From Gemmata obscuriglobus (GTDB lineage Bacteria > Planctomycetota > Planctomycetia > Gemmatales > Gemmataceae): a stretch of DNA of 32,000 bases. A program made the translations under genes and the position numbers. Below, one piece after another: positions 10,565 through 27,489 of this stretch. Positions within the stretch are counted from its first letter, which is position 1. Each line of letters opens with the position of its first letter. The notes beneath the pieces are model-generated. The model did no database searches, had not been told where the DNA came from, and saw only the letters and a program-made list of their open reading frames with translations. The stretch lies in the NCBI RefSeq assembly GCF_008065095.1, contig NZ_CP042911.1, positions 5,760,001-5,792,000 on the forward strand. The letters are read 5' to 3'.

Positions 10565-12130
10565 ATGAGTTCGGGAGCCACCCCACCCCCCGCGTCCGGC
10601 GGGCTGAAGTCGGCGCTAAAGGTCGCCGTGCCGCTCGTAGCGCTCATGGCGGTGATCTTCGGCGCGACCCTGTTCTCGATGTACACCACGAAACCGCAAG
10701 AAGAGACGAAGAGCGGCGGAGATGGCGCCACGGCGAGCAACTCCGAGCCGCCTCTACGTTTCTTCAACAGCGAGCGCACGTGGGACCCGCCGTCGTCCGA
10801 GTTGAAGTACCGGCACCTCCCGAACTTGGCCCCGTCGGCGATCAAAGGGGACGATTATTCCCTTCAAGACCGGGTGTTCGCGGGGTTCTATGAGCCGAGT
10901 TCGGAGACCCTGCGCCGGGCCGCGTTCTGGTTCGAGAACCGCAACCCGAACCCGGTTCTCTTACAGTTGAAGGGGATCAGTTGCACGGCGTGCAGCGGCG
11001 GCCGGCTGGCCGCAATCCCGCCCGAAGTGACGAAAACGTACCTCCAGCGCACCGCTCTGGCGTCACTGCCGATCGGCACGTTCAACGCGTTCGGGGTCGG
11101 GTTGCTCGAACCGGCAGTAGAGTTCGACAAGCTGGAATGGACGACGCACAAGTATCGCGACGACCCGAACGCGACGTACAAGGTGCCCGCGGCGCCGGCG
11201 AACCCGGACAAGTGGACCGCGCAGTGGGGGATTCTCGAACTCACGTTCACGGTATCGAAGGACCCGAAAGTGCCGCTTTCGGCCCAGTTCGCGACCAAAG
11301 TCGAGGGTACCAACCAGGTCGGCGCGCACCTGTTCGGGATCATGTTCGCCGCGTCCGAGGCTTGTGCGGTCTCCCGCCCGACAATCGATGTCGGGGAGAT
11401 TAACCAACTCACCGGCGACCGCGAGTACACATTTGTACTGTACTCGGCGACACGCGGCCCCAAGTCCGAGTTCGACGACCTCCTGCCGCCGGTGTGTACC
11501 GTACAAGCCACCCCAGGCACCGACGCCGGACCGTTCGTCGCTGTGACGAAGGTGGTCCGCGTTCCGGACGCGGATCTGTTCGAGGTGGTGCAGGAGACCG
11601 CGAAGGCGGGACAGTTGACGAAAGTGAAGGCCGCCTACCGGGTGACCGTGGCGGTGCGTCCGCAGGTCGACGGGGCTCGCATCCCGCTCGGCGCGCTCGA
11701 CCGCACCATTTACATCAGCTCGGGCAGCGCGACCGCGGCCGTGAAAGTGAACGCGATGGTGAAGGGCGCGGTGTGGCTCGCGAACGGGAAAACCGAGATC
11801 GAGGTGCCGACCTTCAAGGGCCGGATGGGCACGGTCCACGTACCGGAACTGGTCACCGAGTCCACCGGGTTGGAACTGACCGTGGTCGAAGACGAGAGCA
11901 GGCCGCGGGCGTTCAAGTACCAACTGACGCCGAAGGCCGATCGCGGCGGGCAGGGGTACTACGACCTGAGAATCACGATCCCACCGTCGGCACAGTTCGG
12001 CGCGTTTCGGGACGCGGTGGTGGTACTCGAAGCGAGGCCCAAAAAGCCCGCCGGTGCCTCACCTGACGCGACCGCCCCGCAGGGGCAGCGGATTCGTATT
12101 CCGGTTCGCGGCTTTGGGGAACAGGGCTGA
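10565..12130 (+). CDS. Membrane-anchored DUF1573-like protein (521 aa)
   Basis: Track ORF with an N-terminal TM helix (VAVPLVALMAVIFGATLF). The segment AAFWFENRNPNPVLLQLKGISCTACSGG matches my recollection of the DUF1573 pattern (F-x-F-x-N-x-G..PL.I..v..SCGC). The rest reads as beta-rich repeats. Confidence 0.65.
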   Translation: MSSGATPPPASGGLKSALKVAVPLVALMAVIFGATLFSMYTTKPQEETKSGGDGATASNSEPPLRFFNSERTWDPPSSELKYRHLPNLAPSAIKGDDYSLQDRVFAGFYEPSSETLRRAAFWFENRNPNPVLLQLKGISCTACSGGRLAAIPPEVTKTYLQRTALASLPIGTFNAFGVGLLEPAVEFDKLEWTTHKYRDDPNATYKVPAAPANPDKWTAQWGILELTFTVSKDPKVPLSAQFATKVEGTNQVGAHLFGIMFAASEACAVSRPTIDVGEINQLTGDREYTFVLYSATRGPKSEFDDLLPPVCTVQATPGTDAGPFVAVTKVVRVPDADLFEVVQETAKAGQLTKVKAAYRVTVAVRPQVDGARIPLGALDRTIYISSGSATAAVKVNAMVKGAVWLANGKTEIEVPTFKGRMGTVHVPELVTESTGLELTVVEDESRPRAFKYQLTPKADRGGQGYYDLRITIPPSAQFGAFRDAVVVLEARPKKPAGASPDATAPQGQRIRIPVRGFGEQG

Positions 12131-12303: not shown

Positions 12304-14139
12304 ATGTCCGATCCGATCCCGCGTCCGAACGCCCGCGCGACCGCGTCGCGCCTGTTCGCGCTCCTCGGCTTCGGTGCCGTGCTCGCCGCACTGGCCTCCG
12401 GAACGGCGGCCGATCCGCCGCGAGCGGTGCCGAAAGAAACGCTTGTTGACGGGAAGCCGCTGTTCGCGGACTGGCCCAAGGACCAGAAGCCGGACGCGAC
12501 CCTGGTGCTGACTGGACAGACGTTCGGGTACCTCCAGCCGTGCGGGTGCAGCCGCCCGCAGACCGGGGGATTGGAGCGCCGCGCGTACTTCATCGACCAA
12601 CTCAAGAAAAAGGGCTGGCCGGTCGCCGGGGTGGACCTTGGCGACCTGTACCCGGAAAAGGTGGCGGTTGGTGAGCAGGGCAAGCTCAAGTACCTCGCCG
12701 CCATGAACGCGCTGCGCGAGATGGGGTACATCGCGGTCGGGGTGGGCGAGACGGAACTCAAAGGTGGGCTAGACGGATTGCTCGGCAAATACATCGTGCA
12801 AAAAGAACAGCCCCCGTTCACGCTTGCAGGTAACATTGTCGGGCCGGGGGTGGACGCGGCCGGAAAGCCGGTTCTGTACCCGCGTGAGCAGCGGTTCCCG
12901 CCGGGAGCAGGTAAGCGTCCGATTGTCGAGTTGACCGAGGTGGCTGATGTTGGCGGCGTCCCGGTCGGGGTAGCGGGAGTCGTCGGTAGCCCGCTGGCGG
13001 TTCTGGCCCGAGAAAAGAAGTTCGACACCTCGATCGACTTTGCTAAACCGCAAGACGCACTGGTTGCCGCCCGCGACGCGCTCGCGAAGCACCCCAAAAA
13101 GCCGCGGCTGAATGTCCTGATTTACCAGGGAAGCATGGCCGATGCCCAGAACGTCGCCAAAAACTTCCCCGAGTTCAACGTGATCCTCTGCCAGGCGAGT
13201 GACGCGCTTCCGCCGCTGAAACCTAATTACGTGAACACGACTGCCGGCACGACCGCCATCGTCGAAGTCGGACACAAGGGACAGCACGTCGGCGTCGTGG
13301 GCGCGTTCAAGAAGCCGGGCGGCGGGTTCGAACTGAGGTACCAACTCGTCCCCATGGGCGAGGAGTTCAACCAGCCCGGCACGGACGCGGAGGCGCTCCA
13401 GAAGAATAAGGCGATTCAGTCGCTCCAGTGGTACGCGGAGCGCGTCAAGAAGGACATCGTACTCGGCAAGGATTACCCACGAACCCTGCACGCGGCGCAG
13501 ATCCACGCGGCCGAACTGAAGCCGAAGGGGGTGTCTCTCCGGTACGTGGGATCCGAGGCGTGCAAAGCTTGCCACCAAGCCGAGTACAAGAAATGGGCGG
13601 ATGTGGCCCCGGATGAGAAGTCGCTGGCCCACAGCCACGCGATGAAGTCACTGGAGAAATACGCCCATCGCCCGAACCTGCGCCAGTTCGATGGCGAGTG
13701 CGTGAAGTGTCACACGGTCGGGTTCAACCATAGCACCGGGTACGAGGACGAAAAGAAGACGCCACAACTTAAGAACGTGGGGTGCGAGAACTGTCATGGA
13801 CCGGGCAGCGGACACGTTGCCGACCCCAAGAACAAACAACTAACCGAACTTCTTTCTCAGTGGAAGCAGGGTCTTACACCGGCACCAGGACAGAACGCGA
13901 TTCGGCTGCCTGACAAGGCGTTCATGGAGAAAATGGCTAAACTCGGGCCGGAGGAGCGCGGAAAGATGGCTCAGGCGCCGGCGACGCAACTGTTGATCAA
14001 CCGCGTAAGTGCGATGTGTATGGAGTGCCACGACCACGACGCCGATCCGCATTTCGACATCTATAAGAACTGGGCGAAGATCGGCCACAGTGGGCTCGCC
14101 CCCCCGGGCGGTTGGCCGGCAGTGGCGCCCAAGCAGTAA
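12304..14139 (+). CDS. Secreted tetraheme cytochrome c with a large N-terminal non-heme domain (611 aa)
   Basis: ATG is preceded by caggagga, and there is a signal peptide. The C-terminal third has four CxxCH motifs (CKACH, CVKCH, CENCH, CMECH), resembling cytochrome c554. The N-terminal part has LVLTGQTFGYLQPCGC...GGLERRAYFIDQL...VDLGDL, which resembles a degenerate 5'-nucleotidase/metallophosphoesterase layout. Confidence 0.85.
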   Translation: MSDPIPRPNARATASRLFALLGFGAVLAALASGTAADPPRAVPKETLVDGKPLFADWPKDQKPDATLVLTGQTFGYLQPCGCSRPQTGGLERRAYFIDQLKKKGWPVAGVDLGDLYPEKVAVGEQGKLKYLAAMNALREMGYIAVGVGETELKGGLDGLLGKYIVQKEQPPFTLAGNIVGPGVDAAGKPVLYPREQRFPPGAGKRPIVELTEVADVGGVPVGVAGVVGSPLAVLAREKKFDTSIDFAKPQDALVAARDALAKHPKKPRLNVLIYQGSMADAQNVAKNFPEFNVILCQASDALPPLKPNYVNTTAGTTAIVEVGHKGQHVGVVGAFKKPGGGFELRYQLVPMGEEFNQPGTDAEALQKNKAIQSLQWYAERVKKDIVLGKDYPRTLHAAQIHAAELKPKGVSLRYVGSEACKACHQAEYKKWADVAPDEKSLAHSHAMKSLEKYAHRPNLRQFDGECVKCHTVGFNHSTGYEDEKKTPQLKNVGCENCHGPGSGHVADPKNKQLTELLSQWKQGLTPAPGQNAIRLPDKAFMEKMAKLGPEERGKMAQAPATQLLINRVSAMCMECHDHDADPHFDIYKNWAKIGHSGLAPPGGWPAVAPKQ

Positions 14140-14170
14140 GAAATTGACTGCCGGTAGGTGATTTATCGAT

Positions 14171-14208
14171 GTGCCCCCGGAACCGCACAATGTGGTGCCG
14201 AGGGGCAC
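14171..14208 (+). terminator. Imperfect hairpin downstream of the cytochrome gene
   Basis: gtgcccc (14171-14177) pairs with ggggcac (14202-14208), plus inner cgg/ccg pairs. It lies 32 nt after the stop at 14139. Confidence 0.35.
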
Positions 14209-14415
14209 TCGTTGCGTCTGGGTTATTGGCCCTCGTTTTGGCTTCCTGGCCCCGTCATACCTGTTGAGTAGAACGCGGTAGTTGGGTCAGCCGTGTGACG
14301 GGATGTTCGTCGGATTCGGTACCGGCGCATGAGTGCGAGCCGTGTACCCCTCATTCAGGCTCCGATACCGGTGCTCGGTTCCCGCGCGCTGGTGATCCGA
14401 TCAACGACGGCAGCG

Positions 14416-14476
14416 GCGGGACTGCAAGCGGCATAGAGGAGATCTGTGTCTCACTCCGTGTCGCTTGCAGTCCCGC
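14416..14476. repeat. Perfect 15-bp inverted repeat with 31-nt loop in a 500-nt intergenic gap
   Basis: gcgggactgcaagcg (14416-14430) is the exact reverse complement of cgcttgcagtcccgc (14462-14476). Confidence 0.8.
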
Positions 14477-14640
14477 GGTTCGCGGTGTCCGATGTGTTTG
14501 CCCAGGCAATGCGAGCTGGGCGTGTGGCATTTCATTGTTCAGGCAGAACAACTATGCTCCCCGATACCGCGTTAAGCCGAACGCGGTACCGAGAGCCGCG
14601 CTGGGTGGGTGAAACTGCGCGGTTGGAGTGACTTCCTGGG

Positions 14641-17600
14641 TTACTTGTTCGGATTGATCCGACCCCCGAAGCCTTCGACGATGTTGACGGAGCCGGTGCT
14701 GCGGTCGTAGCTGATGATCTTGCCGGTCTTTTCGGTCCCTTGGCCGCCACGGCTCATCACCCGAGCGGGAATGGTTGCACTGCCAATCAGATCAACTGCC
14801 TTGCCGTGCGTTTTGATCGTTTCGGCAGACCCGTCATAGTCGTCCGATTGCACATAGGCGTTGCCTACGGCCTCCATAACTTGTTCCAGCGCGGCATTCT
14901 GCTTCTTGTGGCTCCATACCACCATTTTTTTGGAGCATGTCATCAATACCGCACGATCCGGTGGGTTGTTCATGTTGACAGCGAGCGTCGGAGACTTCGC
15001 CGGGACGCTAACCGCCTTCACGTTGTCGCCGAAGGTGGCTTCTCGATACACCTTGCCCTTTTCCACGGCCGTCATCCGTCCGCTGAACTCGACGATCGTG
15101 AGCTTCATCTCCTGATCGTTCTTAGGGACCGGCTGCATCGGCTGGGGGGCCGCTCCTCCTGCCGGGCCGACCGGATTGGCTTCCCCCTGCTGCCAGATCC
15201 GGACCCTACCAGGCCCCTCGGCGATGATACGCTGGAACGTCTCTTTGCTGCCGGGCTCTTGTGCCTGCGCGAACATCCGGAGTTCCGAGGCACTGAGTTG
15301 CTGAACCTTAATCGGCTTGCCGTCCTTATCGTGCTCGACCTGGTTGAACCGCACCTCGAGGTCACGCTCGACATCGGCCGTGTCGCCGGGTGCCGGGTAA
15401 CAGAACACTTTGTCGAGTTTGGCTTTGCTGGTGTTCCCCTCTCTCGCGGCGGCCTGCTTTTGGGCGGTGTTGAAGTACATCGGGCGATCGAACACGACGT
15501 TCATTGTGTGGCAATTGACCGACGATTCGCCCTGGGTAGCTTGAACCTTGCCTACGAACTGGGCGGACCGCTTCGCGCCGTCGAAGGTCATTTTGTCGCG
15601 CCAGTGGATCACGACCACCTCGGGCTGGCGCAACTCGCCGCCGGCCAGGTCGCTGTTGGTCGGCATCGTGAGTGCCCCGCGGCCGGTCACCGACGCCGAG
15701 TTCCGCACCTGGTTCAGGACCACCTCCGGCCCGAGCAGCGACATCTCTTCTTGGTGCACCTCGCCGAGCCGGTTGGGCCAGCCGTACACGGTCATCACGC
15801 TGCCGTCCGCGGACCCGTCAATGAGCAGCAGCCGGCCGAGGATGTCCACGCCGCGCGACTTGGACGGGTCGGTCGGGTCCTGGTGAACGTTAACGGCCTC
15901 CTCGCACCGGGCGTGGTTGAGTTGATACCGGACGCTCTCGGCGGCCGGCTCCTTCGGCTTTGGTCCCGCAGGCGAAGGAGCGGTGAACCGCGTCAGGTGC
16001 ATTTCGATCGACTTGGCGCTAATCTGGTGCGGCGGCTTCGGTTTCTCGGGCGCTTTTGCCGCCGGCTCGGGCGGCTTGGGCGGGACCGGCGTGGCCAACG
16101 GCGTCGGGCCGGGTTGCGGCGCGGGGGCCGGGTCTTTCGTGGGCGGTGCGACCGCCCGGGTCACCACGACGGGTTTTGCGTCTGTAATGTGAACGGTCAG
16201 TTGGTCCGCGTAGGTGATGTCGTACTCGGCGGAGTGGCTCTTCACGTTCCCCACCGCGAGCACCCGGGACGGTTTCGCGCCGCCGGTCGGGGACGACAGT
16301 TCCGGGGCACCCGCCGCTTTATCGGCGCGCGGCTCCATCCAGACCTTGAGAACATTGCCGGTCAGCCAGTAGTCGGCCTTGCGGTCGTCGAACTTGGCGT
16401 TGTCGGTGAGGACGAACACGTCCTGTTCGCGACCGTCGATCAGATCCCGGCTCTGCAACAGGGACGTTCGCCACGACGCCGAAAAGGTGACGGCGTTGGT
16501 GCCGGGGTCACGCATCTCGATCTTCCCGGCGCCGCGGACCGTCATCTGTTGCTTCCGCACCGCGGGCTGACCCGGGCCGGCCTGGGGCGGCGGCCCCGGC
16601 TCGATGATGAGCGTGGCCGGCTCTTGCGGGGTGCCCGCGCTGAGTTCGCTCCGCCCCTGCACGACGCGGAGCGGGGTGCCGGAGAGCCTCGTGCGCGACT
16701 CGGCCTGCTGGTGGACCAGATCCCGCCCGTAAGCCACGACCGAGTTGTCGTCGGAGGCGAGGGTGATGTAGCCGTTTGGCACCTGGGTCCAGGCGTGGAG
16801 CTGCTTGATGGCTGGGGCGTTCGACGGGCGCGCGGCCCCGGTCGGCCCGCCGTTGAACTCGAGTTCCAGCACCTGACTGTACAAACTGCTGGCGCCGCCG
16901 TGCGCCGGGATCTTGGTCACCTGGACATCGTTCGGCAGGTTCGGGTCCGAGTGCGGGACCACGTCGAACCGGGCCAGCGCCTTTTCGGCGTCATACGAGA
17001 ACGGTCCGCGGGTGTCGATTTGCAGCAGCGCGCGGTTCAGGAGCCGGGCGTTGTACCCGATCGGCCCCAACCCGCCGGTGACGGCCGCGATCGCCGGCGG
17101 CGGGGGCACGAGCGCCAGCCCGCTGTTCTTGGGCGGCGGGGGCTGGCCTGGCGCGGGCGTCCCGCCCACGATCGACTGCCCGTTGTCGACCCAGAGGTTC
17201 ATTACCACCTGTTCAAGGAACTCGACGCGGCGGACGCCGTTCATCGGGCTGGCGCCGGGCTTCGGCGCCGGCTTGGGTTGCCCGGTCGCCTGCTTCTGTT
17301 CGAGGTACACGCGCAGGCCGAGCGCGGTGATGGTCGGGGGCGGGAGCCGCTGCCCGCTCAGAATTGCGGCCACGGCGCCGGAGTGGCGGTTCTCCTCGCT
17401 TCTGGTCGGGACCGCGACCGGGGCGGCCGAGCCGACCGGGCGGGGCAGGTTCTGCCGGTCCACGATCTCCACGGCCGCGTCGGTCCAGAAGTCCGGGCCG
17501 TTTGCGGCGGGGGTGCCCGCGACCGCCTTCGGGTCGCGGTAGAACATCGGCCCGACGGTGCGCAGCACGAGGGCCCGGTTCGGGTCGCTGGAGCGCTGGT

Positions 17601-18171
17601 TGTTGGTGATGTGGATGGTGCCGCGGCGGGGGTCCGGCAGGGCTTCGGCGAAGTCGCTGTGCAACTCCAACTGCACCAGGGTGGCCTTGCCCGGCCGCAT
17701 GTCGGCCGGGTTGGTGATGACCCGGTCGAACTCCAGCACGCCCTTGTCGGCGTGGATGGTCGTGATCTCGGTGACCTCGCCGGGCTGGCGCAGGTGCTCC
17801 CGCCGCTCCTTGCTGAAGATCGCGATGCTGAACGGGCTGAGCGTGACGCGCTTCGAGTTCGGGTTGCTCGGCGCTTTGCCGGCCGCGACCACGATCGACG
17901 ACTCGCCGTTACGGATCTCGATCTGGGTCTCGTAGTGGGAGTAGTTCGTTTCGGGGCTGTTCTCGCCGAACGCCACGACGAGCTTGTGCAGCGTCTGCGA
18001 GGTGCTGCGCTCGGGCGGCACAAAGCTCCCGGGGTCCGCCGGCACGAGCATCTTGGCGGGGAGCTGCGGTAGCCCGTCGAGCCAGCCGAGCAACTGTGCG
18101 TAAGCGAAGTACGCGCCCGCGGACAGCATGAACCCCGCGAGCAACAACATGGTCCGCCGCGGCGTCAGCAT
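14641..18171 (-). CDS. Giant membrane-anchored periplasmic protein with repeated LptC/LptA(OstA)-like blocks and Pro-rich linkers (1176 aa)
   Basis: The start is taken at ATG 18169-18171 (MLTPRRTMLLLAGFMLSAGAYFAYAQLL, a TM helix), 11 nt after the kdsC stop with GGAG between. The track start at 18519 adds 116 Arg-rich codons overlapping kdsC and is rejected. The CDS itself is secure; the Lpt-like assignment rests on synteny and motifs only. Confidence 0.8.
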   Translation of the reverse strand: MLTPRRTMLLLAGFMLSAGAYFAYAQLLGWLDGLPQLPAKMLVPADPGSFVPPERSTSQTLHKLVVAFGENSPETNYSHYETQIEIRNGESSIVVAAGKAPSNPNSKRVTLSPFSIAIFSKERREHLRQPGEVTEITTIHADKGVLEFDRVITNPADMRPGKATLVQLELHSDFAEALPDPRRGTIHITNNQRSSDPNRALVLRTVGPMFYRDPKAVAGTPAANGPDFWTDAAVEIVDRQNLPRPVGSAAPVAVPTRSEENRHSGAVAAILSGQRLPPPTITALGLRVYLEQKQATGQPKPAPKPGASPMNGVRRVEFLEQVVMNLWVDNGQSIVGGTPAPGQPPPPKNSGLALVPPPPAIAAVTGGLGPIGYNARLLNRALLQIDTRGPFSYDAEKALARFDVVPHSDPNLPNDVQVTKIPAHGGASSLYSQVLELEFNGGPTGAARPSNAPAIKQLHAWTQVPNGYITLASDDNSVVAYGRDLVHQQAESRTRLSGTPLRVVQGRSELSAGTPQEPATLIIEPGPPPQAGPGQPAVRKQQMTVRGAGKIEMRDPGTNAVTFSASWRTSLLQSRDLIDGREQDVFVLTDNAKFDDRKADYWLTGNVLKVWMEPRADKAAGAPELSSPTGGAKPSRVLAVGNVKSHSAEYDITYADQLTVHITDAKPVVVTRAVAPPTKDPAPAPQPGPTPLATPVPPKPPEPAAKAPEKPKPPHQISAKSIEMHLTRFTAPSPAGPKPKEPAAESVRYQLNHARCEEAVNVHQDPTDPSKSRGVDILGRLLLIDGSADGSVMTVYGWPNRLGEVHQEEMSLLGPEVVLNQVRNSASVTGRGALTMPTNSDLAGGELRQPEVVVIHWRDKMTFDGAKRSAQFVGKVQATQGESSVNCHTMNVVFDRPMYFNTAQKQAAAREGNTSKAKLDKVFCYPAPGDTADVERDLEVRFNQVEHDKDGKPIKVQQLSASELRMFAQAQEPGSKETFQRIIAEGPGRVRIWQQGEANPVGPAGGAAPQPMQPVPKNDQEMKLTIVEFSGRMTAVEKGKVYREATFGDNVKAVSVPAKSPTLAVNMNNPPDRAVLMTCSKKMVVWSHKKQNAALEQVMEAVGNAYVQSDDYDGSAETIKTHGKAVDLIGSATIPARVMSRGGQGTEKTGKIISYDRSTGSVNIVEGFGGRINPNK

Positions 18172-18182
18172 GGCACTCCGGA

Positions 18183-18716
18183 TTAAGTGGTGTAGCGGGC
18201 CGTCACTTCGCCCCAGCGGCCCGCGAGCTTCAGCAGCCACTCGATGGCGTCGCGGACGGCCCCGTGCCCGCCGGGCACGGCGGTGACGTAGTGGGCGACC
18301 GCGCGAGCTTCGGTACAGGCGTCCGCCACCGCGACCGCCAGTCCGCACGCCCGCAACACGGGGACATCGGGCAGGTCGTCGCCGAGGGCGCACACCCGGT
18401 CGGGGGGCACCCCCGTTACACGGAGCACCTCTTCGAGCGCCGAGCGTTTGTCCTCGCGCCCCTGAAGAACCGGCGACACGCCCAACTCTGCGGCGCGGCG
18501 CTCGACCGCCGACGAACACCGACCCGACACAATGGCGACCCGCTTACCGGCCGCGCGCCACAACTTCAAGCCCGACCCATCGCGCACGTGGAACCGCTTT
18601 AGTTCGCGCCCGTCGTCCAGGTAGGCCACGCTGCCATCGGTCATGACCCCGTCTACGTCGAGTAGGAGGAGTTCGATCGCGGCGGCGCGGGCGGCAAGCT
18701 CGGAAGTCTGCATCAC
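18183..18716 (-). CDS. kdsC: KDO 8-phosphate phosphatase (HAD-IIIA)
   Basis: LLLLDVDGVMTDG (HAD motif I), VAIVSGR, GDDLPDVPVL (motif IV), about 176 aa. The track start is GTG at 18716, and an adjacent ATG at 18713 is equally possible. Confidence 0.9.
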   Translation of the reverse strand: MMQTSELAARAAAIELLLLDVDGVMTDGSVAYLDDGRELKRFHVRDGSGLKLWRAAGKRVAIVSGRCSSAVERRAAELGVSPVLQGREDKRSALEEVLRVTGVPPDRVCALGDDLPDVPVLRACGLAVAVADACTEARAVAHYVTAVPGGHGAVRDAIEWLLKLAGRWGEVTARYTT

Positions 18717-18717
18717 T

Positions 18718-19752
18718 TTACGCGCTCTTACGGCCGATCAGGCGCAAATGGGATTGTGAATTTGTTTCACCGGCGTGCGAGTCGAGTCCGATTAGGTCGG
18801 TAATGTCGAGCATGCCGATCGGCCGCCCGTCTGCATCGACCACCGGCAGTTCGCTGAACTTCCTCGCCTTGAGCGCGTCCAGCGCGACCGTGACCCGAAC
18901 CTCGGGGCCGATGACGACCGGTGCGCGCGTCATGACGGCGGCGATGGGCGAATCGAGGAGCCGGTCCTCGCGGTTCTCGAACAGGCGCGCGAGGTCGCTG
19001 TCGGTGAACAGACCCGAGAGCCGTCCGGCGGCGTCCGTGAGCATGATGGCGCCGGTCCGGCGGCCGGTGTGCCGCACCTTGGCGAACACCTCGCGCACGG
19101 TGTCGGTTTCCGGGGCGACGCGCAGCTCGTCGCCGCGCCGCATCCACTCGGAAACCACCGCGAGCTTCCGCCCGAGCGACCCGGCCGGGTGGAACGTGGC
19201 GAACTCGTCCGCGGTGAACTGGCGCTGCTCTACCAGGGTGAACGCGAGGGCGTCACCTAGCGCGAGCATCACGGTCGTGCTGCTGCTCGGGGCCAAGTTG
19301 AGCGGACACGCTTCGATGACGGGGCCGTAGACGACGGCCGCGTCGACGGCGCGGGCGAGCGTGCTCGCCGCGCTACCCGTAATCGCGAGCACTCCGGCGG
19401 CCAACTTCTTGAGCGGGGCGATGAGTCGGATCAGCTCTTCCGATTCGCCGCTATGGGAGAGCAGCAGGGCGACATCGTCCGGGTGGACGCTGCCGAGGTC
19501 ACCGTGAACGGCGCGCGTTGCATCGAGGGTGTACGCTCGGGTGCCCGTGGAGTTGAGCGTGCCGACGGTCTTCTGCCCGATGTCCGCGGATTTCCCCACG
19601 CCGATAACCGCGACCCGCCCACGACACGCGAGCAGCACGTCCGCGACCCGGTTGAACCCGTCGTCGAGCCGACCAGCGACCACGTCGAGCGACGCGGCTT
19701 CGGCGCGCAACACACGGCGGGCGTATGCGAGTTGGTCAAAGGGGGCGGTCAT
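18718..19752 (-). CDS. kdsD: Arabinose-5-phosphate isomerase (KpsF/GutQ family; SIS + 2 CBS)
   Basis: SIS signature VIGVGKSADIGQKTVGTLNSTG with a C-terminal CBS pair, 344 aa. Its stop lies 1 nt before the kdsC start. Confidence 0.9.
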   Translation of the reverse strand: MTAPFDQLAYARRVLRAEAASLDVVAGRLDDGFNRVADVLLACRGRVAVIGVGKSADIGQKTVGTLNSTGTRAYTLDATRAVHGDLGSVHPDDVALLLSHSGESEELIRLIAPLKKLAAGVLAITGSAASTLARAVDAAVVYGPVIEACPLNLAPSSSTTVMLALGDALAFTLVEQRQFTADEFATFHPAGSLGRKLAVVSEWMRRGDELRVAPETDTVREVFAKVRHTGRRTGAIMLTDAAGRLSGLFTDSDLARLFENREDRLLDSPIAAVMTRAPVVIGPEVRVTVALDALKARKFSELPVVDADGRPIGMLDITDLIGLDSHAGETNSQSHLRLIGRKSA

Positions 19753-20061: not shown

Positions 20062-20144
20062 CAGGGCAGGGCTGCGCACGGATCGGTGCTAGGTAAGCTG
20101 CGGCATGTGGGTATGGGTGCGGCTCCTCGTTTCAGGGGCCGTCG

Positions 20145-21288
20145 ATGTCCCGTTCCCTGGTCGAGCGATTGGCCGAGCTACCGGCCCCGCGGAGCCATCA
20201 CGGTCGCCAGCACCACTGGTAGGCCTGTTGACCCTGTACTTGGTAGCGGTGATGAGCGGGCACACCACGCCTGAGGCGATTTCTCCGTTCGGGCGACGGC
20301 GGCAGAAGCGGTTGGGGCACGCACTGGGGTTCCGGCACGGCAATATGCCGTGCCCCAACACCAGCGCGGGGTTGATGCGGAAGTTGGACGCCGACCACCT
20401 GGACCGGATCATCGGGGCGTGGCTGGCGGACCGGCACCCCGACGGGTGGGAGCACCTCGCGTTGGACGGCAAGCGGTTGCACGGGTCGCGAGACGGCGAG
20501 GTGCCGGGGGTCCACCGGCGGGCCGCGTGCGCCCCGGGCGTCTCGGCGGTGGTCGCCCAGATGACGGTCGAGACCACCACCCACGAGCACGAGGCGGCGC
20601 TCCGGTTGCTGGGCGTGTTGCCCCCGCTGGCGGGACCATCATCACCGGGGACGCCATGTTCACCCAGCCGGACGTGTGCGCCGCGGTACAGGAGCGAGGC
20701 GGGGATTACATCCTGTACGCCAAGAGCAACCAGGGTACGCTGTGCACGGACCTGGAAGCCGCGTTCGCCACCGCCGCGGGGGCGATTTTTCCCCCCGGGT
20801 TGCCGCGTCAGTGGGACCGGGACGCGGGCACCGCGTGTGAGGTGAGCAAGGGGCACGGGTGGGTCGAGCGGCGCACCATGACCAGCACCATATGGCTCAA
20901 CGAGTACTTGACCCGGTGGCCCGGGGTGCAACAGGTGTTCCGGCTCACGCGCACCCGTCAGGTCGGTGGGAAGACAACCGTGGAGGTGGTGTACGGGATT
21001 TCTAGTCTGAGCTCGGTAGCCGCGGCACCCGATGCGTTACTCCGGTACACCCGCACCCACTGGGGCATCGAGAGCCGGCACCACATCCGCGACGCGACCT
21101 TGGGCGAGGACCGGTGCCGGGTGCGCCGGGGCGCCGCACCACGGGTGCTGGCGGTGCTGCGGAACGTGGCCGTGTACCTGCTCCGGCGCCTCGGTACCGG
21201 CACCATCGCAGCCGTGATTCGGACGGTTGGTGCCAAACCTGAGCTGGCACTGGCGGCCGCCCATCAGCCAGTTTCAGTCTCTGAGTAG
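20145..21288 (+). pseudogene. ISAs1-family (H-repeat/DDE_Tnp_ISAs1) transposase, copy A, at least two frameshifts
   Basis: The reading is split over three frames: MSRSLVERLAELPAPRSHHGRQHHW* (from ATG 20145), then ...PLVGLLTLYLVAVMSG...LALDGKRLHGSRDG...LRLLGVLPPLAG, then TIITGDAMFTQ...YILYAKSNQ...HGWVERR...THWGIESRHHIRDATLGEDRCRVR. The frame breaks lie at the short C-run 20213-20214 and the G-run 20632-20634. It is colinear with copy B. Element ends are unclear, roughly 20060-21296. Confidence 0.8.
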
Positions 21289-21296
21289 CCCTGTAG

Positions 21297-22550
21297 CCCA
21301 GGGCCTTTCCTTGATTCACTCTACGTAACTCCGATAAGTCCCTTGGCCATTGCCGGGTCCATCTGGAGCCGCTCGATCGCCTCCGGGCAACTCACCGCCT
21401 TGACCTCACGCCACAGGTGCACCACGGCGTTCCGCAGCGCCGCCAGCACCTGTGGTGCGTGCCCCATGCGCACACGACACGCGTCCTCGCCCAGTGTCAC
21501 GTCACGCACGTAATGCAGTTCGTTCTCGATGCGCCAGTGCGTCCGCACATGGTTCAGGAGTGTGGCCGCATCCGCCTTCTCGGCCGACAGGCTCGTGATG
21601 CCGAAATGCACTTCGACCGTCGTTTGGCCTCGGACCGTCCGCTCACGCGTCAACTGGAAGCCCTGCTTCACCCCCGCCCACGTCGGCGAGCACGTCAGAA
21701 TCGAGGTCGTTTGCAGCGTCCGCTTCTCGATGCGGCCGTGACCCTTATCGACGGTCGTGGCGATGCGGCTCGGGGCGGGCGGAGGCCGATCCCCAGGGGG
21801 AAGTGGCCGCCGCGATCGATCGGGCGGCGGTCTCGAAGGCGAACCCGGCTCGGATGTCGATCCCCAATCCGGGTTGGTTGTCCTTCACCGTGAGCACGTA
21901 GTCGCCGCCGGCCCCGACCACCTCCTCGGCCAGGTCTCGCTGGCAGAACATGGCGTCGCCGACCACGACCTTCCCTCGCAGCGGCAGAATGCCGAGGAGC
22001 GTCAAGGCGGCCTTGTGCCCGTTGGTGCTCGCATCGACCTTGACCTGGGCGAGTACGGCACCGACGGTGGGGGCGTATGCGGCCAGCAGGTGCTGACCGG
22101 GGATCGCGCCGTTGCGAGAGCCTCGAAGGGTCTTGCCGTCGATGGAGATGTGTGTGAAGGCGGCCGGGTCGACGCGGCTGGCGATCCAGTACGAGAGGAC
22201 GTGCTCCAGTTGGTCGGCGTCGAAGCGTCGCAGGGTGCGGGAGAGCGTGGAAACGGCCGGGGTCTTGCCGCGTCGGAAGCCGAGGGCATGGGCGAGGGCG
22301 GGTCCGTGCTGTCGCCCGAAGCGAGCGATGCCATTGAGGCTGGTGCGCCCCATGAGCATGGCGAGGGCGACGAGTCCGAGGAAGGGGGCGAGTGGGTGGA
22401 TAAGGCCGTGCTTGCTGCGGGGATCGGGAACCGCCGCCAGGGCATCGACCAGGGTGCAAGGAGACATGGGTACCTTCCTGGCTGCGAGAAGGCGCCCCAC
22501 ATAGCCACGTTCCCTCGTGTAAGCAAGGTGAAATAAGGAAAGGCCCTGGA
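21297..22550 (-). mobile_element. ISAs1-family insertion sequence, copy B (1254 bp)
   Basis: Terminal IRs are cccagggcctttccttgattcac (21297-21319) and gtgaaataaggaaaggccctgga (22528-22550), with 20 of 23 positions complementary. They enclose the transposase frame. I saw no clear target duplication. Confidence 0.75.
21321..22467 (-). pseudogene. ISAs1-family transposase, copy B, one frameshift in a G5 run
   Basis: The N-terminal part starts at ATG 22465-22467 (MSPCTLVDALAAVPDPRSKHG...SIDGKTLRGSRNG...VVVGDAMFCQRD...YVLTVKDNQ). The frame is lost at ggggg 21796-21800. Removing one G restores ...TSPGDRPPPAPSRIATTVDKGHGRIEKRTLQ...VKQGFQLTRERTV...THWRIENELHYVRDVTLGEDACRVR. Confidence 0.8.
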
Positions 22551-22887
22551 GGGGCACCCAACCACATCTCCGCAAGTTGAATCAAGGTAACGAATCACTA
22601 TAATTAATCAGACTTCCGATTGGTCCACGCGCAAACCGTGACCTGACATCGGTGAAAGGTGGAACCACACTGCTGACACTACCCACCCGTTCGCGTTTCA
22701 TTACAATTTTTCAATCGGCGAGTGCAACTCTAATGTACCGAAATTTTGCGAGGCAATGGATCAGTGCTAAGTTTGGCCCAATAAAATGGCGGCCAAAGAT
22801 AACTTAAACGGGTTGAATCCTGACCAAAGGTGTGTAAAGCAAAAGTAATGGAACTGAATCCCAGTTCATACGCAAATGCTCAACTTT

Positions 22888-22958
22888 TACCCGGTAGTGT
22901 AACGGTAGCACAAGAGATTTTGGTTCTCTTTGTCTAGGTTCGAATCCTAGCCGGGTAA
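22888..22958 (+). tRNA. tRNA-Gln (anticodon UUG), 71 nt, no encoded CCA
   Basis: Hand-folded cloverleaf: 7-bp acceptor tacccgg/ccgggta with U1-A72, D stem gtgt/gcac with loop aacggta, anticodon stem agaga/tctct with loop ttTTGgt, 4-nt variable loop, and T arm ctagg-ttcgaat-cctag. Confidence 0.85.
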
Positions 22959-23342: not shown

Positions 23343-24287
23343 ATGAGGCTAGATGCGGCAGTCACGGCGGGTTCATGTATGAGAGCGGACCTGTTGCGGG
23401 AGTGCGGGGTGACCGAAGCGGAGTGGCAGTCGCTCCCGAACGTGGGGGCGCGATACGCCGCACTCAACCCCTGGTGGGGTGCGGATGGGAACACGTCCCT
23501 CACTCAATCGCGCAAGAGCCGACTCCTGTGGGCCGGGTGCGCACGCACGGGGTACGTCCGGCTGCCGTGGGTGTACCGGCTGATGGTGGACGTTGCCGAG
23601 CAGGTCGCCGACGGGCTTGTTCCGGAGTGGACCGAACTCCAAACGGCGCTCTTCTGTGGCGAGGAAGGGATCTGGGGTTGCGGTGACGACGTGGCGATGC
23701 GGCAAGCCGCGATCGACAGGCTCGAAGCCAGGCTGCGCGACGAGCACGGGCTGAAGCCGAGTGGCGACGAGCCCCCGTACGACAGCCCCGGGCAGGAATG
23801 TTGGGAGAAGCAGTGGGCCTGTTGGGCCATCCACGGTACGCCGCCATCAGGCCGCTGGATCGGCGACGGCCGTGTTGTGTCGGCCCTGTTCAGCGACATC
23901 TTCGGCAACTCATTTCGAGCCGCAACGCTGGGCGCGAACTGGCTCACCGATACCGCGGTCGCGATTGCCCGGCAGGCGTACGAGTCGCGAGACTTCTCCG
24001 CGCTCCCGATCTTGGCGGATGCCCTCCAAGACGCCGGGTGCGACTCCGCCGACGTTCTCAGCCACTGCCGCGACCCGAACGCCCCCCACGTGCGCGGGTG
24101 CTGGGTGGTGGATCTGGTGCTCGGAAAAGTGGCTGACCGGCCCGCGCATCCGGCAGACGGTCAGTGCCCCCCTTCCCCGCCATCGGCAGGCGACGGCCCG
24201 CTCGTCTTCTTCGACGTCGCCCCGAGCCGCTCGGCGAGTTGCCGCATCACCTCGTCGGTCACCTGCTGTTCGTCGAGCTTGACATAG
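23343..24287 (+). CDS. Member of a planctomycete paralog family of unknown function (TEAEW ... DIFGNxFR ... HVRGCWVVDLxLGK)
   Basis: VTEAEWQ, SRKSRLLWAGCARTG, SDIFGNSFRAATLGANWLTDTAVAIARQAYESRDFSALPILADALQDAGCDSADVLSHCRDPNAPHVRGCWVVDLVLGK matches a family I recall as abundant in Gemmata-type genomes, which normally ends at ...LGK(E). Here the frame reads on about 50 further codons into the convergent recombinase remnant. The start may be 23343 or 23379. Confidence 0.6.
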   Translation: MRLDAAVTAGSCMRADLLRECGVTEAEWQSLPNVGARYAALNPWWGADGNTSLTQSRKSRLLWAGCARTGYVRLPWVYRLMVDVAEQVADGLVPEWTELQTALFCGEEGIWGCGDDVAMRQAAIDRLEARLRDEHGLKPSGDEPPYDSPGQECWEKQWACWAIHGTPPSGRWIGDGRVVSALFSDIFGNSFRAATLGANWLTDTAVAIARQAYESRDFSALPILADALQDAGCDSADVLSHCRDPNAPHVRGCWVVDLVLGKVADRPAHPADGQCPPSPPSAGDGPLVFFDVAPSRSASCRITSSVTCCSSSLT

Positions 24288-24439: not shown

Positions 24440-25469
24440 CTCATTCACGATAGCCGCGGATTCGTATTTTAGCGGTGCCGATCTCGTCGCGGTGAGGGTC
24501 CCCATGATCGCACGTCTGGACAACCTGCGGCAGCATCGGGTGGTGTTTGAGCACCTGACCGGGTTGACAATCGCGGCGTTCGACGCGCTGGTGCGTGACG
24601 TGGCCCCGGTGGTGGAGGCGGGGCACCGCCAGAAGCTCAACCGTCCGGACCGGCCGCGGGCGGTGGGCGGGGGCGACCACTTCGACCTGAGCACCGCGGA
24701 CCAATTGCTGCTCACCGTCATCTGGCTGCGCCAGTACCCGACCAACGAGGTGCTCGGGTTCCTGTTCGGGGTGTCCGACTCGACCGCCAGCCGGGTCCGG
24801 ACCCGGTGCGTGCCGGCCCTGGCCCAGGCCGGCCGAGACACGATGCGGATGCCGGACCCGGGGGCCGCCCGCCGCAAGCGGTTGCCGGCGGTGCTGAGTG
24901 ACACCCCCGAGCTGGCGGTCATCGTGGACTCGTTCGAGCAGCGGACCCAGCGGCCGAAGCGGAGCCAGCGGGCGTACTACTCGGGCAAGAAGAAGGCGCA
25001 CACGCTCAAGAGCCAGGTGACCGTGGACGAGGCGTCCGGGCGCATCGTCCACGTGTCCGAGTCGGTGCCCGGGCGGTGGGCCGACATCAAGCTCCTCAAG
25101 AGGTCCCGGATGCTGGGGCGGTTGCCGGACCGGGTCGGGGCACTCGGGGACCTGGGTTACACCGGGATCCGGGACCTCCACACCGCGAGTGCGTGCCCGC
25201 GCCGCAAGCCCCGCGGGCAGGAGCGGCCGCCCGAGGACCGCAAGTACAACCGCGCGTTCAGTCGCCGCCGGATCGGGGTCGAGCATGCGATCGGCCGGCT
25301 CCGCCGGTTCCGTTCGCTGGCCCACGTGAACCGGCACCGGCGGCCCGGGCACGCGCTGCGGGTTCGGGCCGTGGCCGGGTTAGTCAATCGGATGCTCGAC
25401 CACCGGGCCAAGGCCGCTTGAGCACCGGTTGGGGAGGGGGACGAACACCCCCACCCTAGCGTGAATGAG
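24440..25469 (+). mobile_element. IS5-like / DDE_Tnp_4 (Harbinger-PIF type) insertion sequence, 1030 bp, apparently intact
   Basis: The IRs are ctcattcacgata (24440-24452) and tagcgtgaatgag (25457-25469), 12 of 13 complementary. A direct 3-bp repeat gac flanks the element (24437-24439 and 25470-25472). Confidence 0.8.
24504..25421 (+). CDS. IS5-like transposase (HTH_Tnp_4 + DDE_Tnp_4), 305 aa
   Basis: ATG at 24504 lies inside track ORF 24492..25421. Diagnostic segments: LLLTVIWLRQYPTNEVLGFLFGVSDSTASR, VIVDSFEQRTQRP...YYSGKKKAHTLKSQV, GDLGYTG, NRAFSRRRIGVEHAIGRLRRFR. Confidence 0.85.
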   Translation: MIARLDNLRQHRVVFEHLTGLTIAAFDALVRDVAPVVEAGHRQKLNRPDRPRAVGGGDHFDLSTADQLLLTVIWLRQYPTNEVLGFLFGVSDSTASRVRTRCVPALAQAGRDTMRMPDPGAARRKRLPAVLSDTPELAVIVDSFEQRTQRPKRSQRAYYSGKKKAHTLKSQVTVDEASGRIVHVSESVPGRWADIKLLKRSRMLGRLPDRVGALGDLGYTGIRDLHTASACPRRKPRGQERPPEDRKYNRAFSRRRIGVEHAIGRLRRFRSLAHVNRHRRPGHALRVRAVAGLVNRMLDHRAKAA

Positions 25470-25637: not shown

Positions 25638-25683
25638 ACGGTATTGGGCCTAGGCCTCGGAGCGCCGGCCACGCGAGCTGAGC

Positions 25684-25896
25684 GTGGCCGGCACGGTGCA
25701 GGCGCTGGCCGCGTTTGCCGAGGTGTTGGATACGGAGGCCGGGTATCAGGCGTTCGTCTGCGTGGTGTTGGCGTACCCGGTGGGCGATCGCCCCGACCGA
25801 TTCGAGCCCCGCGCACGCAAACGACGGCCCAAGCCCTACCCACCACTCACCGTACCCAGAGACCAAGCCCGAAAACGGCTCGGCCGCTCAACTTAA
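25684..25896 (+). pseudogene. C-terminal stub of another IS4/IS701-type transposase
   Basis: The track ORF ends ...VGDRPDRFEPRARKRRPKPYPPLTVPRDQARKRL, the basic tail typical of these transposases. No catalytic part is present. Confidence 0.4.
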
Positions 25897-25964
25897 GGAC
25901 TCAGGAAGTGCCATTCGGATCAATCGGATTCGCTCTGATACACGTATCCGGTAGTATTGCCGCG

Positions 25965-27489
25965 TTCTTGACGAGCCGCGACCGCCAGGGTAATGGCACT
26001 CGTTTTCAGTTTTGGTGTGTTTCGGGTGCTAGTTGGCACGGTTATTGCGCACTGGTTGTGTCATCCACCGACGGAACCGTTGCCATGACCGAGCCTTCCG
26101 GACCGACGGGCGAGGAGTTCGAGCGCGCGTTCGACCTCCTCGCCGCTCATTTCGACCCATCCGAGGCCGATGCCCGGTTCCCCCGGCGGGCCAACGCCGT
26201 GTATACCGCCTCGGTCATCCTCTGGATGCTCGTGTACCAGCGCACCCACCCCGACAAGTCCCTGGAAGCCACCGTCAAGCATCTGCTCGACGCCCGACCC
26301 GATTTGCTCCCTAACACCAAGCGGGTGCGCGAGAACGCGCTGTCGTCGAATACCAGCAGCTACTCCGACGCCCGCCAGTGGCTACCGCTCGAAGCGGCCC
26401 GATGGTTCGCCGACCATGTGAGCCGCGCGCGCATCGACGGTGCCCCGCCCACGTGGTCCGGGCGGCGCGTGTTCCTGATCGACGGCACCACCCGGACCCT
26501 GGCCCCCGAACCCGAGCTCCGCGAGAAGTACCCACCGGCCACGAACCCGCACGGCCGCGGGGTGTGGCCGGTGGCACTGCTGGTGGTCGCCCACGAGTTG
26601 AGTAGCGGGGCCGCCGTGGTGCCCGAAGTGGGGGCCACGTTCGGCCCCCACGCGGTGTCGGAAACGGCACTGGCCGGGGCCGTCATGGACCGCCTGCCCG
26701 CCAACGGGGTGGTGATGGCGGACGCCGGGTTCGGGATCTTCGCGGTGGCGCTCGGGGCTCGCGCGCGGGGCCTGGGGTTCGTGTTCCGGCTGACGGCGGC
26801 GCGGTTCACCGCATACCGCCGCACGGCTCGTGAGGTGGGCCGTGGGGACGGGTGGTGGACCGGGGAATTCGCGTGGCGCCCCAGCGCCAAGGAGCGGCGC
26901 AAGCACCCGGAGTGGGCGGCGGACGCCGAGCTGAAGGCGCGGGTGCACGAGGTGAGCATACCGAACGGCGGGGCGCTGGCGGTGGTGACGGACACGGACG
27001 CCACGGCCAGCGACGTGGGCTCGTGGTACCGGCAACGGGGCACCGTGGAAGTGGACATCCGGAACGTGAAGGTGGTGCTGAACACCGAGCACATGGCGGT
27101 GCGAAGCGAGGCGATGTTCCGTAAGGAGTTGCTGATGTCGGTGGTGTCGTACAACCTAGTGGTGCCGTTCCGCCGGCAAGCGGCCGAGCGGGCCAAGTGC
27201 CGGCCACGGGAGCTGAGTTTTAAGCGCGTGTGGACCACGTTCCGAACGTTCTTGCTGGGAAAGATGTTCACGACGGCGGGGCAATGGCGCGCCGGTTACG
27301 AGCGGGCGCTCGGGTACGCCATGCGCGACCGACTACCCCAACGCCCGCCCGATCGCCGGTACGAGCGAGAGGCGTACCCGAGGCGCCCGAAAGCCGACCA
27401 GTTCAAAAAACGCAAACCGCGAACCACCACCAACCACACACCAACATAAAACGAGTGCCATTACCCCGGCGGTCGCGGCTCGTCAAGAA
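25965..27489 (+). mobile_element. IS4-family insertion sequence, 1525 bp, apparently intact
   Basis: The 42-bp terminal IRs are ttcttgacgagccgcgaccgccagggtaatggcactcgtttt (25965-26006) and its complement at 27448-27489, with one mismatch. I saw no obvious target duplication. Confidence 0.85.
26085..27449 (+). CDS. IS4-family DDE transposase (454 aa)
   Basis: ATG at 26085 (MTEPSGPTGEEFERAFDLL...) lies inside track ORF 25644..27449, whose upstream part crosses the left IR and the preceding stub. Diagnostic segments: VFLIDGTTRTL, VMADAGFG, YRQRGTVEVDIRNVK, and the basic C-terminal tail. Confidence 0.85.
   Translation: MTEPSGPTGEEFERAFDLLAAHFDPSEADARFPRRANAVYTASVILWMLVYQRTHPDKSLEATVKHLLDARPDLLPNTKRVRENALSSNTSSYSDARQWLPLEAARWFADHVSRARIDGAPPTWSGRRVFLIDGTTRTLAPEPELREKYPPATNPHGRGVWPVALLVVAHELSSGAAVVPEVGATFGPHAVSETALAGAVMDRLPANGVVMADAGFGIFAVALGARARGLGFVFRLTAARFTAYRRTAREVGRGDGWWTGEFAWRPSAKERRKHPEWAADAELKARVHEVSIPNGGALAVVTDTDATASDVGSWYRQRGTVEVDIRNVKVVLNTEHMAVRSEAMFRKELLMSVVSYNLVVPFRRQAAERAKCRPRELSFKRVWTTFRTFLLGKMFTTAGQWRAGYERALGYAMRDRLPQRPPDRRYEREAYPRRPKADQFKKRKPRTTTNHTPT

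Follow-up and report, generated by a model that had tools for sequence, protein, structure and literature searches.

A six-unit, transmembrane-anchored protein of Gemmata obscuriglobus as a candidate single-chain LptC-LptA lipopolysaccharide bridge

In the Lpt system by which Escherichia coli transports lipopolysaccharide (LPS), the transmembrane helix and β-jellyroll of LptC dock on LptB2FG and LptA joins LptC to the N-terminal jellyroll of LptD; the jellyrolls have one shared fold and stack head to tail into a continuous groove (PMC5575297). The genes follow the order kdsD-kdsC-lptC-lptA-lptB, as given in the original prediction made for this locus and as we verified on strain MG1655. How many copies of LptA the E. 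coli bridge contains, and how it copes with variable periplasm width, are open questions. Here we describe a locus of Gemmata obscuriglobus in which kdsD and kdsC are followed by a gene for a protein of 1176 amino acids (aa), referred to below as the giant protein. The window, meaning the whole stretch of DNA analysed, is 32,000 nucleotides (nt) long (contig NZ_CP042911.1, positions 5,760,001 to 5,792,000), and coordinates are counted from its first letter. The giant protein is probably a single-chain LptC-(LptA)n periplasmic LPS bridge of the Gemmata Lpt system, built of six units in all, four of which are independently supported and two of which we infer.

The comparison with E. coli LptC and LptA is close in layout. 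The Gemmata gene, like theirs, comes directly after kdsD-kdsC; its product, like LptC, has a single N-terminal transmembrane helix followed by a jellyroll, this first unit resembling LptC structurally; and three of its downstream modules (units 2, 5 and 6), like LptA, fall in family PF03968. The presumed mechanism, in which LPS slides along head-to-tail stacked jellyrolls, would be shared as well. Unlike the E. coli pair, the Gemmata family is a single chain of 1,019-1,347 aa with six fixed units and proline-rich insertions, sequence similarity to LptC is undetectable, the score against the LptA equivalog model is far under its cut-off, and no lptB comes next.

Two further kinds of protein are relevant. 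The N-terminal domain of LptD (OstA_N) also belongs to PF03968, and LptD chains head the structural matches of the whole model; unlike LptD, an exported protein that inserts into the outer membrane, the giant protein is anchored by an N-terminal transmembrane helix and is without a C-terminal β-barrel (no PF04453 match; TM-score <=0.18). The AsmA-like proteins, TamB, YhdP, VPS13 and LPD-3/BLTP1 share with it the principle of one chain forming one bridge, with a membrane anchor followed by about 1,000 or more residues, and in these AsmA/TamB-type and eukaryotic bridges a β-groove is thought to span the intermembrane gap. The modules of the giant protein differ from theirs in being LptA/LptC-type jellyrolls where this is testable, and its genomic context is Kdo (3-deoxy-D-manno-oct-2-ulosonic acid) and LPS, in contrast to the phospholipid homeostasis of AsmA/TamB-type proteins. 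As a single-chain Lpt bridge, the giant protein would make the distinction between modular Lpt bridges and one-chain carriers such as AsmA, TamB and VPS13 less sharp.

An operon with Kdo-synthesis genes

The operon consists of the following features.

18718..19752, minus strand: kdsD, first operon gene, arabinose-5-phosphate isomerase of 344 aa with SIS (PF01380) and two CBS (PF00571) domains
18183..18716, minus strand: kdsC, Kdo-8-phosphate phosphatase (HAD-IIIA) of 177 aa
18172..18182, minus strand: spacer of 11 nt between kdsC and the giant open reading frame (ORF), tccGGAGtgcc, read from the sequence
14641..18171, minus strand: giant ORF (GobsT_49120), 1176 aa, with its ATG at 18171 and its stop codon at 14641-14643

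All three genes are co-directional on the minus strand and form one operon. KdsD scores 231.9 bits against TIGR00393 (KpsF/GutQ; cut-off 203.7) and KdsC 146.9 bits against TIGR01670 (cut-off 106.95). The junction reads TAA (the kdsC stop)-tccGGAGtgcc-ATG (the giant ORF start), and GGAG at 18176-18179 is the likely ribosome-binding site of the giant ORF; the shared orientation and the 11-nt spacing with its GGAG had both been noted in the original prediction, and both can be read directly in the DNA. An alternative in-frame GTG at 18519, 5' of this ATG, would overlap kdsC, and because the homologues all begin M[WL]TP[KR]R the start is placed at ATG 18171. The database entry GobsT_49120 is 100% identical to the giant protein and carries the UniRef name 'Organic solvent tolerance-like N-terminal domain-containing protein'. 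A 1110-aa ORF lying antisense to the giant gene (14740-18072, plus strand) is a high-GC shadow ORF, since conservation and homologues back the minus-strand frame.

The giant protein belongs to a large family, with 2,531 representatives at 50% identity (E<=1e-3), 573 of them at E<=1e-30, and among the best 150 representatives those that are not evident fragments are full-length, at about 1,020-1,310 aa. Conservation was assessed in an alignment of 78 diverse members with 25-68% identity to the window protein and total lengths of 1019-1347 aa. All six units are present in every one of the 78, with near-constant unit lengths, and most of the length variation in the family falls within the proline-rich segments. 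A scan of a genome collection with close homologues found 49 loci, all from Gemmatales (among them Gemmata, Frigoriglobus, Urbifossiella, Fimbriiglobus and metagenome-assembled genomes, MAGs); a homologue search started from a distant member returned metagenomic proteins only.

Gene order upstream is strictly conserved. The 5' end of the giant gene is covered in 49 loci, 47 of the genome scan along with loci L001 and L002, and in all 49 the gene's immediate upstream neighbour, on the same strand, is kdsC; kdsD precedes kdsC in 44 loci, which are all those long enough to show it. The order kdsD-kdsC-giant gene is also found in Urbifossiella limnaea and another MAG, in three members of only ~28-30% identity, and in a 1433-aa relative of 25% identity. 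The genes 3' of the giant gene vary between genomes.

Two observations on individual loci can be added. In Urbifossiella limnaea (L001, 15902-21793), about 6 kb 3' of the giant gene, a 1307-aa ORF that no Pfam family matches is followed by genes for LptE (PF04390, E 2.4e-9) and for a lipoprotein of the TPR/YfiO-like kind; this stretch is possibly a loose neighbourhood of Lpt and outer-membrane biogenesis genes, in that genome only. MAG contigs L035 and L047, titled 'uncultured Alcaligenaceae bacterium', carry a Gemmatales-type kdsD-kdsC-giant operon at 36-37% identity, and their titles probably reflect mis-binning or mislabelling in the public records.

Architecture and identity of the six units

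An AlphaFold2 (AF2) model of the whole protein, built from 37 homologues, has a mean predicted local distance difference test score (pLDDT) of 78.9 and a predicted TM-score (pTM) of 0.61. The model is a confident one: a helix at residues 4-31 leads through a brief disordered region into about 68 β-strands, among which helices are scarce. Read alongside the strand pattern, low-confidence segments at 336-351, 617-629, 669-708 and 1003-1017 delimit six jellyroll-sized units.

18079..18162, minus strand: N-terminal transmembrane helix, aa 4-31, predicted by AF2
17185..17928, minus strand: unit 1, aa 82-329, predicted LptC-like β-jellyroll with helical insertions
16597..17034, minus strand: unit 2, aa 380-525, LptA/OstA_N-like jellyroll with 14 predicted strands
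16180..16551, minus strand: unit 3, aa 541-664, predicted β-module with long hairpins, pLDDT mostly 80-95
16030..16179, minus strand: longest proline-rich low-complexity segment, aa 665-714, between units 3 and 4, pLDDT <50 at aa 669-708
15652..16029, minus strand: unit 4, aa 715-840, confident predicted β-structure
15181..15636, minus strand: unit 5, aa 846-997, LptA/OstA_N-like jellyroll
14671..15114, minus strand: unit 6, aa 1020-1167, last jellyroll of the chain, LptA-like, its C-terminal edge free

The original prediction had quoted proline-rich and β-strand-like strings, all of which are in the translation, and had proposed an LptC-like anchor fused to several LptA-like modules, a proposal now backed by PF03968 matches in three modules, the LptC fold of unit 1 and the gene order. 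The search of a predicted structure for serial jellyrolls that it had proposed turned up the six jellyroll-sized β-units and the LptC and LptA fold matches, with units 3 and 4 placed by predicted β-structure only. Family members differ in the length of the segment between units 3 and 4 (40-146 aa), whose proline fraction is 0.26. A pTM of 0.61 over 1176 residues suggests that the predicted units have a defined arrangement rather than lying as beads on a string, and the proline-rich 'linkers' may be loops on a continuous rod, not flexible tethers.

The N-terminus is the most conserved part of the family protein. Its pattern is M-W/L-T-P-K/R-R, a hydrophobic stretch of transmembrane length, and then Y-x-x-Y-A-x-x-L-G-x-I-D-G-L-P-P-L-P, the conserved motif after the helix being LG-x-(I/L)DGLP-x-LP. 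Residues R6, G29, L37 and P38 are invariant in the 78 diverse members, 113 of the 119 representatives of full length have a hydrophobic N-terminal segment (<60 aa), and the listed N-termini carry the flanking motifs throughout. In the window protein the sole hydrophobic segment comprises residues ~8-28, in agreement with the single N-terminal transmembrane helix that had been predicted. The conserved motifs on both sides of the helix argue for a retained functional anchor and not a generic signal peptide.

PF03968 (LptA/LptD_N) is the only Pfam family matched by the window protein. The match lies in unit 5 (aa 859-919; E 5.7e-5, 23.7 bits, gathering cut-off 20.4), a region that also matches in family members P0157 (26 bits) and P0165. 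The same family is matched in 24 of 37 close homologues, and of 9 distant members 8 score no lower than the cut-off, the highest at 46 bits, with E-values as low as 6e-12. Modules were also scanned separately, using isolated modules of three distant members, and those above the PF03968 cut-off fall, across relatives, in units 2, 5 and 6. For unit 2, the segment of P0207 covers profile positions 1-105 of 113 at 27.3 bits, and that of P0174 scores 16.9 bits (cut-off 20.4). For unit 6, matches in P0174, P0183, P0207, P0240, P0262 and P0157 reach profile positions 108-112 of 113, and the isolated unit is above the cut-off in P0174 (23.9 bits) and P0157 (22.5 bits). The check by profile hidden Markov models (HMMs) that had been proposed at the outset has come out in two ways, PF03968 being above its cut-off but PF06835 (LptC) giving no match.

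Foldseek searches of the whole model against the PDB placed LptD chains first (4q35_A at E 2e-6, followed by 9a39, 5iv9 and 8h1s; E 2e-6 to 1e-4). Their TM-scores were 0.15-0.18 with a root-mean-square deviation (rmsd) of ~30 Å, and the likeness is therefore one of local β-sheet geometry, not of the barrel. LptA structures 2r1a and 2r19 were matched with prob 1.0 and a target-normalised TM-score of 0.58-0.66, with an rmsd as low as 2.9 Å over 122 columns, Foldseek not specifying which unit was matched. LptH (4uu4) was likewise found with prob 1.0, and LptC was also among the matches.

Sequence methods gave nothing for unit 1, and residues 1-345 were therefore modelled on their own (pLDDT 81.6, pTM 0.71). 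Against the 350,542 chains of the PDB, the four best Foldseek matches of this model are all LptC: 6mit_C and 4b54_B (both prob 0.97), 9dor_C and 6mjp_C (0.69 and 0.91 for these two). TM-scores to the target range from 0.49 to 0.67, with 0.67 for 4b54_B, and beyond the four LptC chains no match exceeds prob 0.2.

Unit 6 has the clearest link to LptA in sequence. Searched with its family profile, residues 103-152 of E. coli LptA score 20.7 bits (E 0.0027 for a Z of PDB size), whereas none of 3,000 shuffled decoys scores above 7.9 bits, and the matched residues include the region of the GNAY string, so that the last module matches LptA around LTGNAYLQQ...KGDKITY. The LptA string quoted in the original prediction, LTGNAYLQQVDSNIKGDKITY, was verified on E. 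coli MG1655. The resemblance claimed for it stands with the broad unit 6 profile but not pairwise, since BLASTP of the C-terminal 163 aa against E. coli LptA gave a 9-residue match at E 0.14 and hhalign of the GNAY region with a close-homologue profile gave 1.9%; the likeness of unit 6 to LptA is significant only with the broad family profile. When all modules were compared with E. coli LptA, LptC and LptD_N, by hhalign and by unit HMMs with shuffled controls, only the pairing of unit 6 with LptA rose above noise.

Within the protein, no internal sequence repeats were found with the close-homologue alignment, and a broader alignment gave weak, consistent similarity among units 2, 3, 5 and 6. 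By hhalign, unit 2 matches unit 6 with 58.8% over 113 columns. Unit 3 resembles units 5 and 6 weakly in profile-profile comparison (probabilities of 32-70%, columns aligned 23-66) and has no HMM match in the module scans or the comparison with E. coli Lpt proteins, and its placement in the predicted jellyroll series is tentative. The unit 4 alignment matched nothing Lpt-related among PDB sequences and Pfam. As Lpt-type modules, units 3 and 4 are putative, their assignment coming from predicted β-structure only.

Four cysteines, C756, C887, C924 and C1079, are invariant or nearly so in the family, and all lie within units 4-6. They could form periplasmic disulfides that staple neighbouring modules, reminiscent of the interdomain disulfides of LptD.

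A proposed LPS bridge and competing explanations

The operon, the transmembrane helix, the fold and family matches and the conserved architecture are shown by the analysis. For the partners, the continuity of the groove, the direction of transport and the length of the bridge we infer the following, with E. coli as the guide. The transmembrane helix and unit 1 would dock on an LptB2FG ABC extractor, and Kdo-LPS, its Kdo made partly via the co-transcribed KdsD and KdsC, would be pushed into the groove of unit 1. LPS would then slide past one unit after another in an unbroken β-sheet groove, until the free C-terminal edge of unit 6 passed it to outer-membrane LptD at the latter's N-terminal jellyroll. 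Judged by its homology and by where its gene lies, the giant protein most likely combines the roles of LptC and LptA, with the transmembrane helix and unit 1 as anchor and entry, units 2-5 as conduit and unit 6 as exit, a role for which the extension of its PF03968 match to the last profile positions can be cited. Fusion would set the number of bridge modules genetically, and not via LptA oligomerisation.

Laguri et al. approximated four jellyrolls at 16 nm, the E. coli periplasm being 21 nm wide (PMC5575297). At ~4 nm per jellyroll, six units would therefore measure ~24 nm, and with the jellyrolls of LptF/G and the LptD N-terminal domain added the bridge is estimated at about 32 nm. Because six fused units replace LptC and at least one LptA, the Gemmata bridge would be roughly 1.5-2 times the minimal E. 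coli bridge; the original prediction of a bridge 'several times longer' was overstated. Planctomycetes have been described with an extended periplasm (PMC12673574), and a tie between that feature and the giant protein is speculative.

Several results weigh against the giant protein being such a bridge. In ~55 loci whose flanks were searched with E. coli LptB, LptF, LptG and LptD, no lptB, lptF/G or lptD adjoins the giant gene; the search returned three generic ABC ATPase matches only, and that beside the G. algarum gene is of ABC-F type. This agrees with a published account in which Proteobacteria alone have their lpt genes in clusters (PMC8871954). TIGR03002, the LptA equivalog, scores only 18 bits (cut-off 71.7), and since it falls short and the modules are fused in a transmembrane-anchored chain, the giant protein is not to be filed as 'LptA' as such. 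The whole-family profile searched against PDB sequences retrieved no Lpt chain, only spurious proteasome matches. For unit 1, no LptC model (PF06835 or NCBIfam) is matched at E<=1 by the window protein, the 9 distant members or the isolated unit, the family profile of the unit scores 6.2 bits against E. coli LptC, which is within noise, and the LptC fold matches of aa 1-345 have weak E-values (0.07-0.23); the case for unit 1 therefore rests on the exclusivity of the ranking and on the layout, in which a jellyroll comes after a transmembrane helix. A quarter of the protein, units 3 and 4 (aa 541-840), has no sequence match to any Lpt protein, and the strands of these units are unusually long. 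The N-terminal helix may also be cleaved as a signal peptide, for which Gemmata has a candidate site between A-Y-A and Q.

Of the alternatives, the one that survives best is that the giant protein is an Lpt-related jellyroll protein and not the (sole) LPS bridge, canonical LptC and LptA being encoded elsewhere; we regard this as unlikely. Such a protein could be an anchor or a ruler, or an accessory or paralogous carrier whose cargo is some other glycolipid or lipoprotein of the envelope. Lpt-like systems do exist that carry other cargo, for example in Borrelia, an organism without LPS (PMC10353723), and the lack of an adjoining Lpt partner gene and the unestablished affinity of two modules (units 3 and 4) would suit this explanation. 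Yet the gene occupies the exact lptC/lptA slot after kdsC family-wide, it appears to be single-copy, and it is conserved over its full length. G. obscuriglobus is reportedly an LPS producer, a finding that other works attribute to the 2016 study of Mahat and colleagues. The published HMM survey also reports a 'largely reduced' Lpt set in Planctomycetes (PMC8871954), which runs against canonical genes elsewhere and is the expected outcome if LptC and LptA are hidden in a divergent fusion.

An AsmA/TamB/YhdP-type bridge-like protein carrying phospholipids, whose OstA-like matches would be convergent or very distant, is a quite improbable explanation of the giant protein. Its layout of a single N-terminal transmembrane helix and ~1,100 residues of β-sheet would match, LPD-3 (9cap_A) is among the whole-model fold matches (E 1.3e-4, prob 0.51, TM 0.11-0.12), and units 3 and 4 have long hairpins without an Lpt sequence signal. 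However, no AsmA, AsmA_2, TamB/DUF490 or related Pfam or NCBIfam model is matched (E<=1), and TamB, YhdP and AsmA are absent from the top 50 Foldseek PDB matches, where LptD, LptA, LptH and LptC are present with prob ~1.0. The N-terminal module matches LptC specifically, LPD-3 and Vps13 reaching prob <=0.04 there, three different modules score above the PF03968 cut-off, and the operon with Kdo-synthesis genes is strict.

That the giant protein is instead the planctomycete LptD orthologue, a jellyroll with a divergent β-barrel whose helix is a cleaved signal peptide, is highly improbable: LptD chains are the best whole-model matches, the Pfam family bears the name LptD_N, and Gemmata has an A-x-A motif after the hydrophobic segment, but there is no barrel-level superposition at the TM-scores and rmsd given above, PF04453 (the LptD barrel) is matched neither in the window protein nor in the 9 distant members, the hydrophobic segment is of transmembrane length with conserved motifs on both flanks, and the chain is interrupted by proline-rich disordered segments. 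The LptD that Speth et al. (2012) identified in G. obscuriglobus was a match of a different kind, to a BLAST query that included the barrel (E 1e-25), and may be another gene.

Returning to the single-chain bridge, we entertain as possible, with rather less confidence than the bridge itself, a joint reading in which the six-module chain is the sole periplasmic LPS conduit in Gemmatales, acts as a ruler and contains novel central groove modules. If true, a single chain has replaced separate LptC and LptA, probably more widely in Planctomycetota. The ruler role is proposed because the module number is genetically fixed; where LPS is exported, such a ruler would fix, or depend on, a distance of ~30 nm between inner and outer membrane, although the periplasm of these bacteria is otherwise enlarged and irregular. 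The central modules, units 3 and 4, may be a new groove element between Lpt jellyrolls and the β-grooves of the AsmA/VPS13 type.

Automated pipelines label members of this family 'LptA/OstA family protein' or 'LptA', and the family affiliation of one domain was therefore already known. Full-text literature searches, whose coverage did not extend to Mahat et al. 2016 and Mahajan et al. 2020, returned no account of a fused or giant, transmembrane-anchored, six-unit LptC-LptA. HMM surveys may overlook LptC and LptA in Planctomycetes; the giant protein is a concrete candidate for both, and would fit the view that planctomycetes have a normal diderm route of LPS export. A single-polypeptide conduit would be a natural experiment on the stoichiometry and length of the bridge, and might give structural biologists a stable sample of a whole bridge with defined stoichiometry.

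Flanking genes in the window

The 3' flank of the operon agrees with the original prediction of a 500-nt gap followed by a convergent cytochrome gene and no lptB. The gap measures 501 nt (14140-14640) and contains no called feature, lptB was not found 3' of the giant gene in the window, and the next gene is the following.

12304..14139, plus strand: gene for a UshA-like/multihaem cytochrome c554-type protein of 611 aa, convergent on the giant gene

This protein matches PF13435 and scores 164 bits against NF041198, short of the cut-off of 275. Just upstream of its gene lies a 521-aa ORF (10565-12130, plus strand) with an N-terminal hydrophobic segment and no Pfam match; a second ORF with no Pfam match encodes 314 aa (23343-24287, plus strand). 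Rfam, terminator and promoter scans of the window gave nothing bearing on the operon.

Two IS-type transposase genes lie directly upstream of kdsD (20105-21288, plus strand, and 21321-22575, minus strand; PF13808 DDE_Tnp_1_assoc and PF01609 DDE_Tnp_1) and separate the operon from its original upstream neighbour. Both are split over two ORFs, in opposite orientations, and they are probably frameshifted or decayed copies. Further DDE transposases are found at 24492-25421 and 25644-27449, both on the plus strand (PF13359/PF13613 and PF01609), and with a tRNA gene at 22888-22958 (plus strand) the four transposases make up an IS-rich stretch of ~7 kb. A Ser/Thr protein kinase of 907 aa fused to WD40 β-propeller repeats is encoded at 29090-31813 (minus strand), in a stretch of 75% G+C compared with ~65% for the remaining window.

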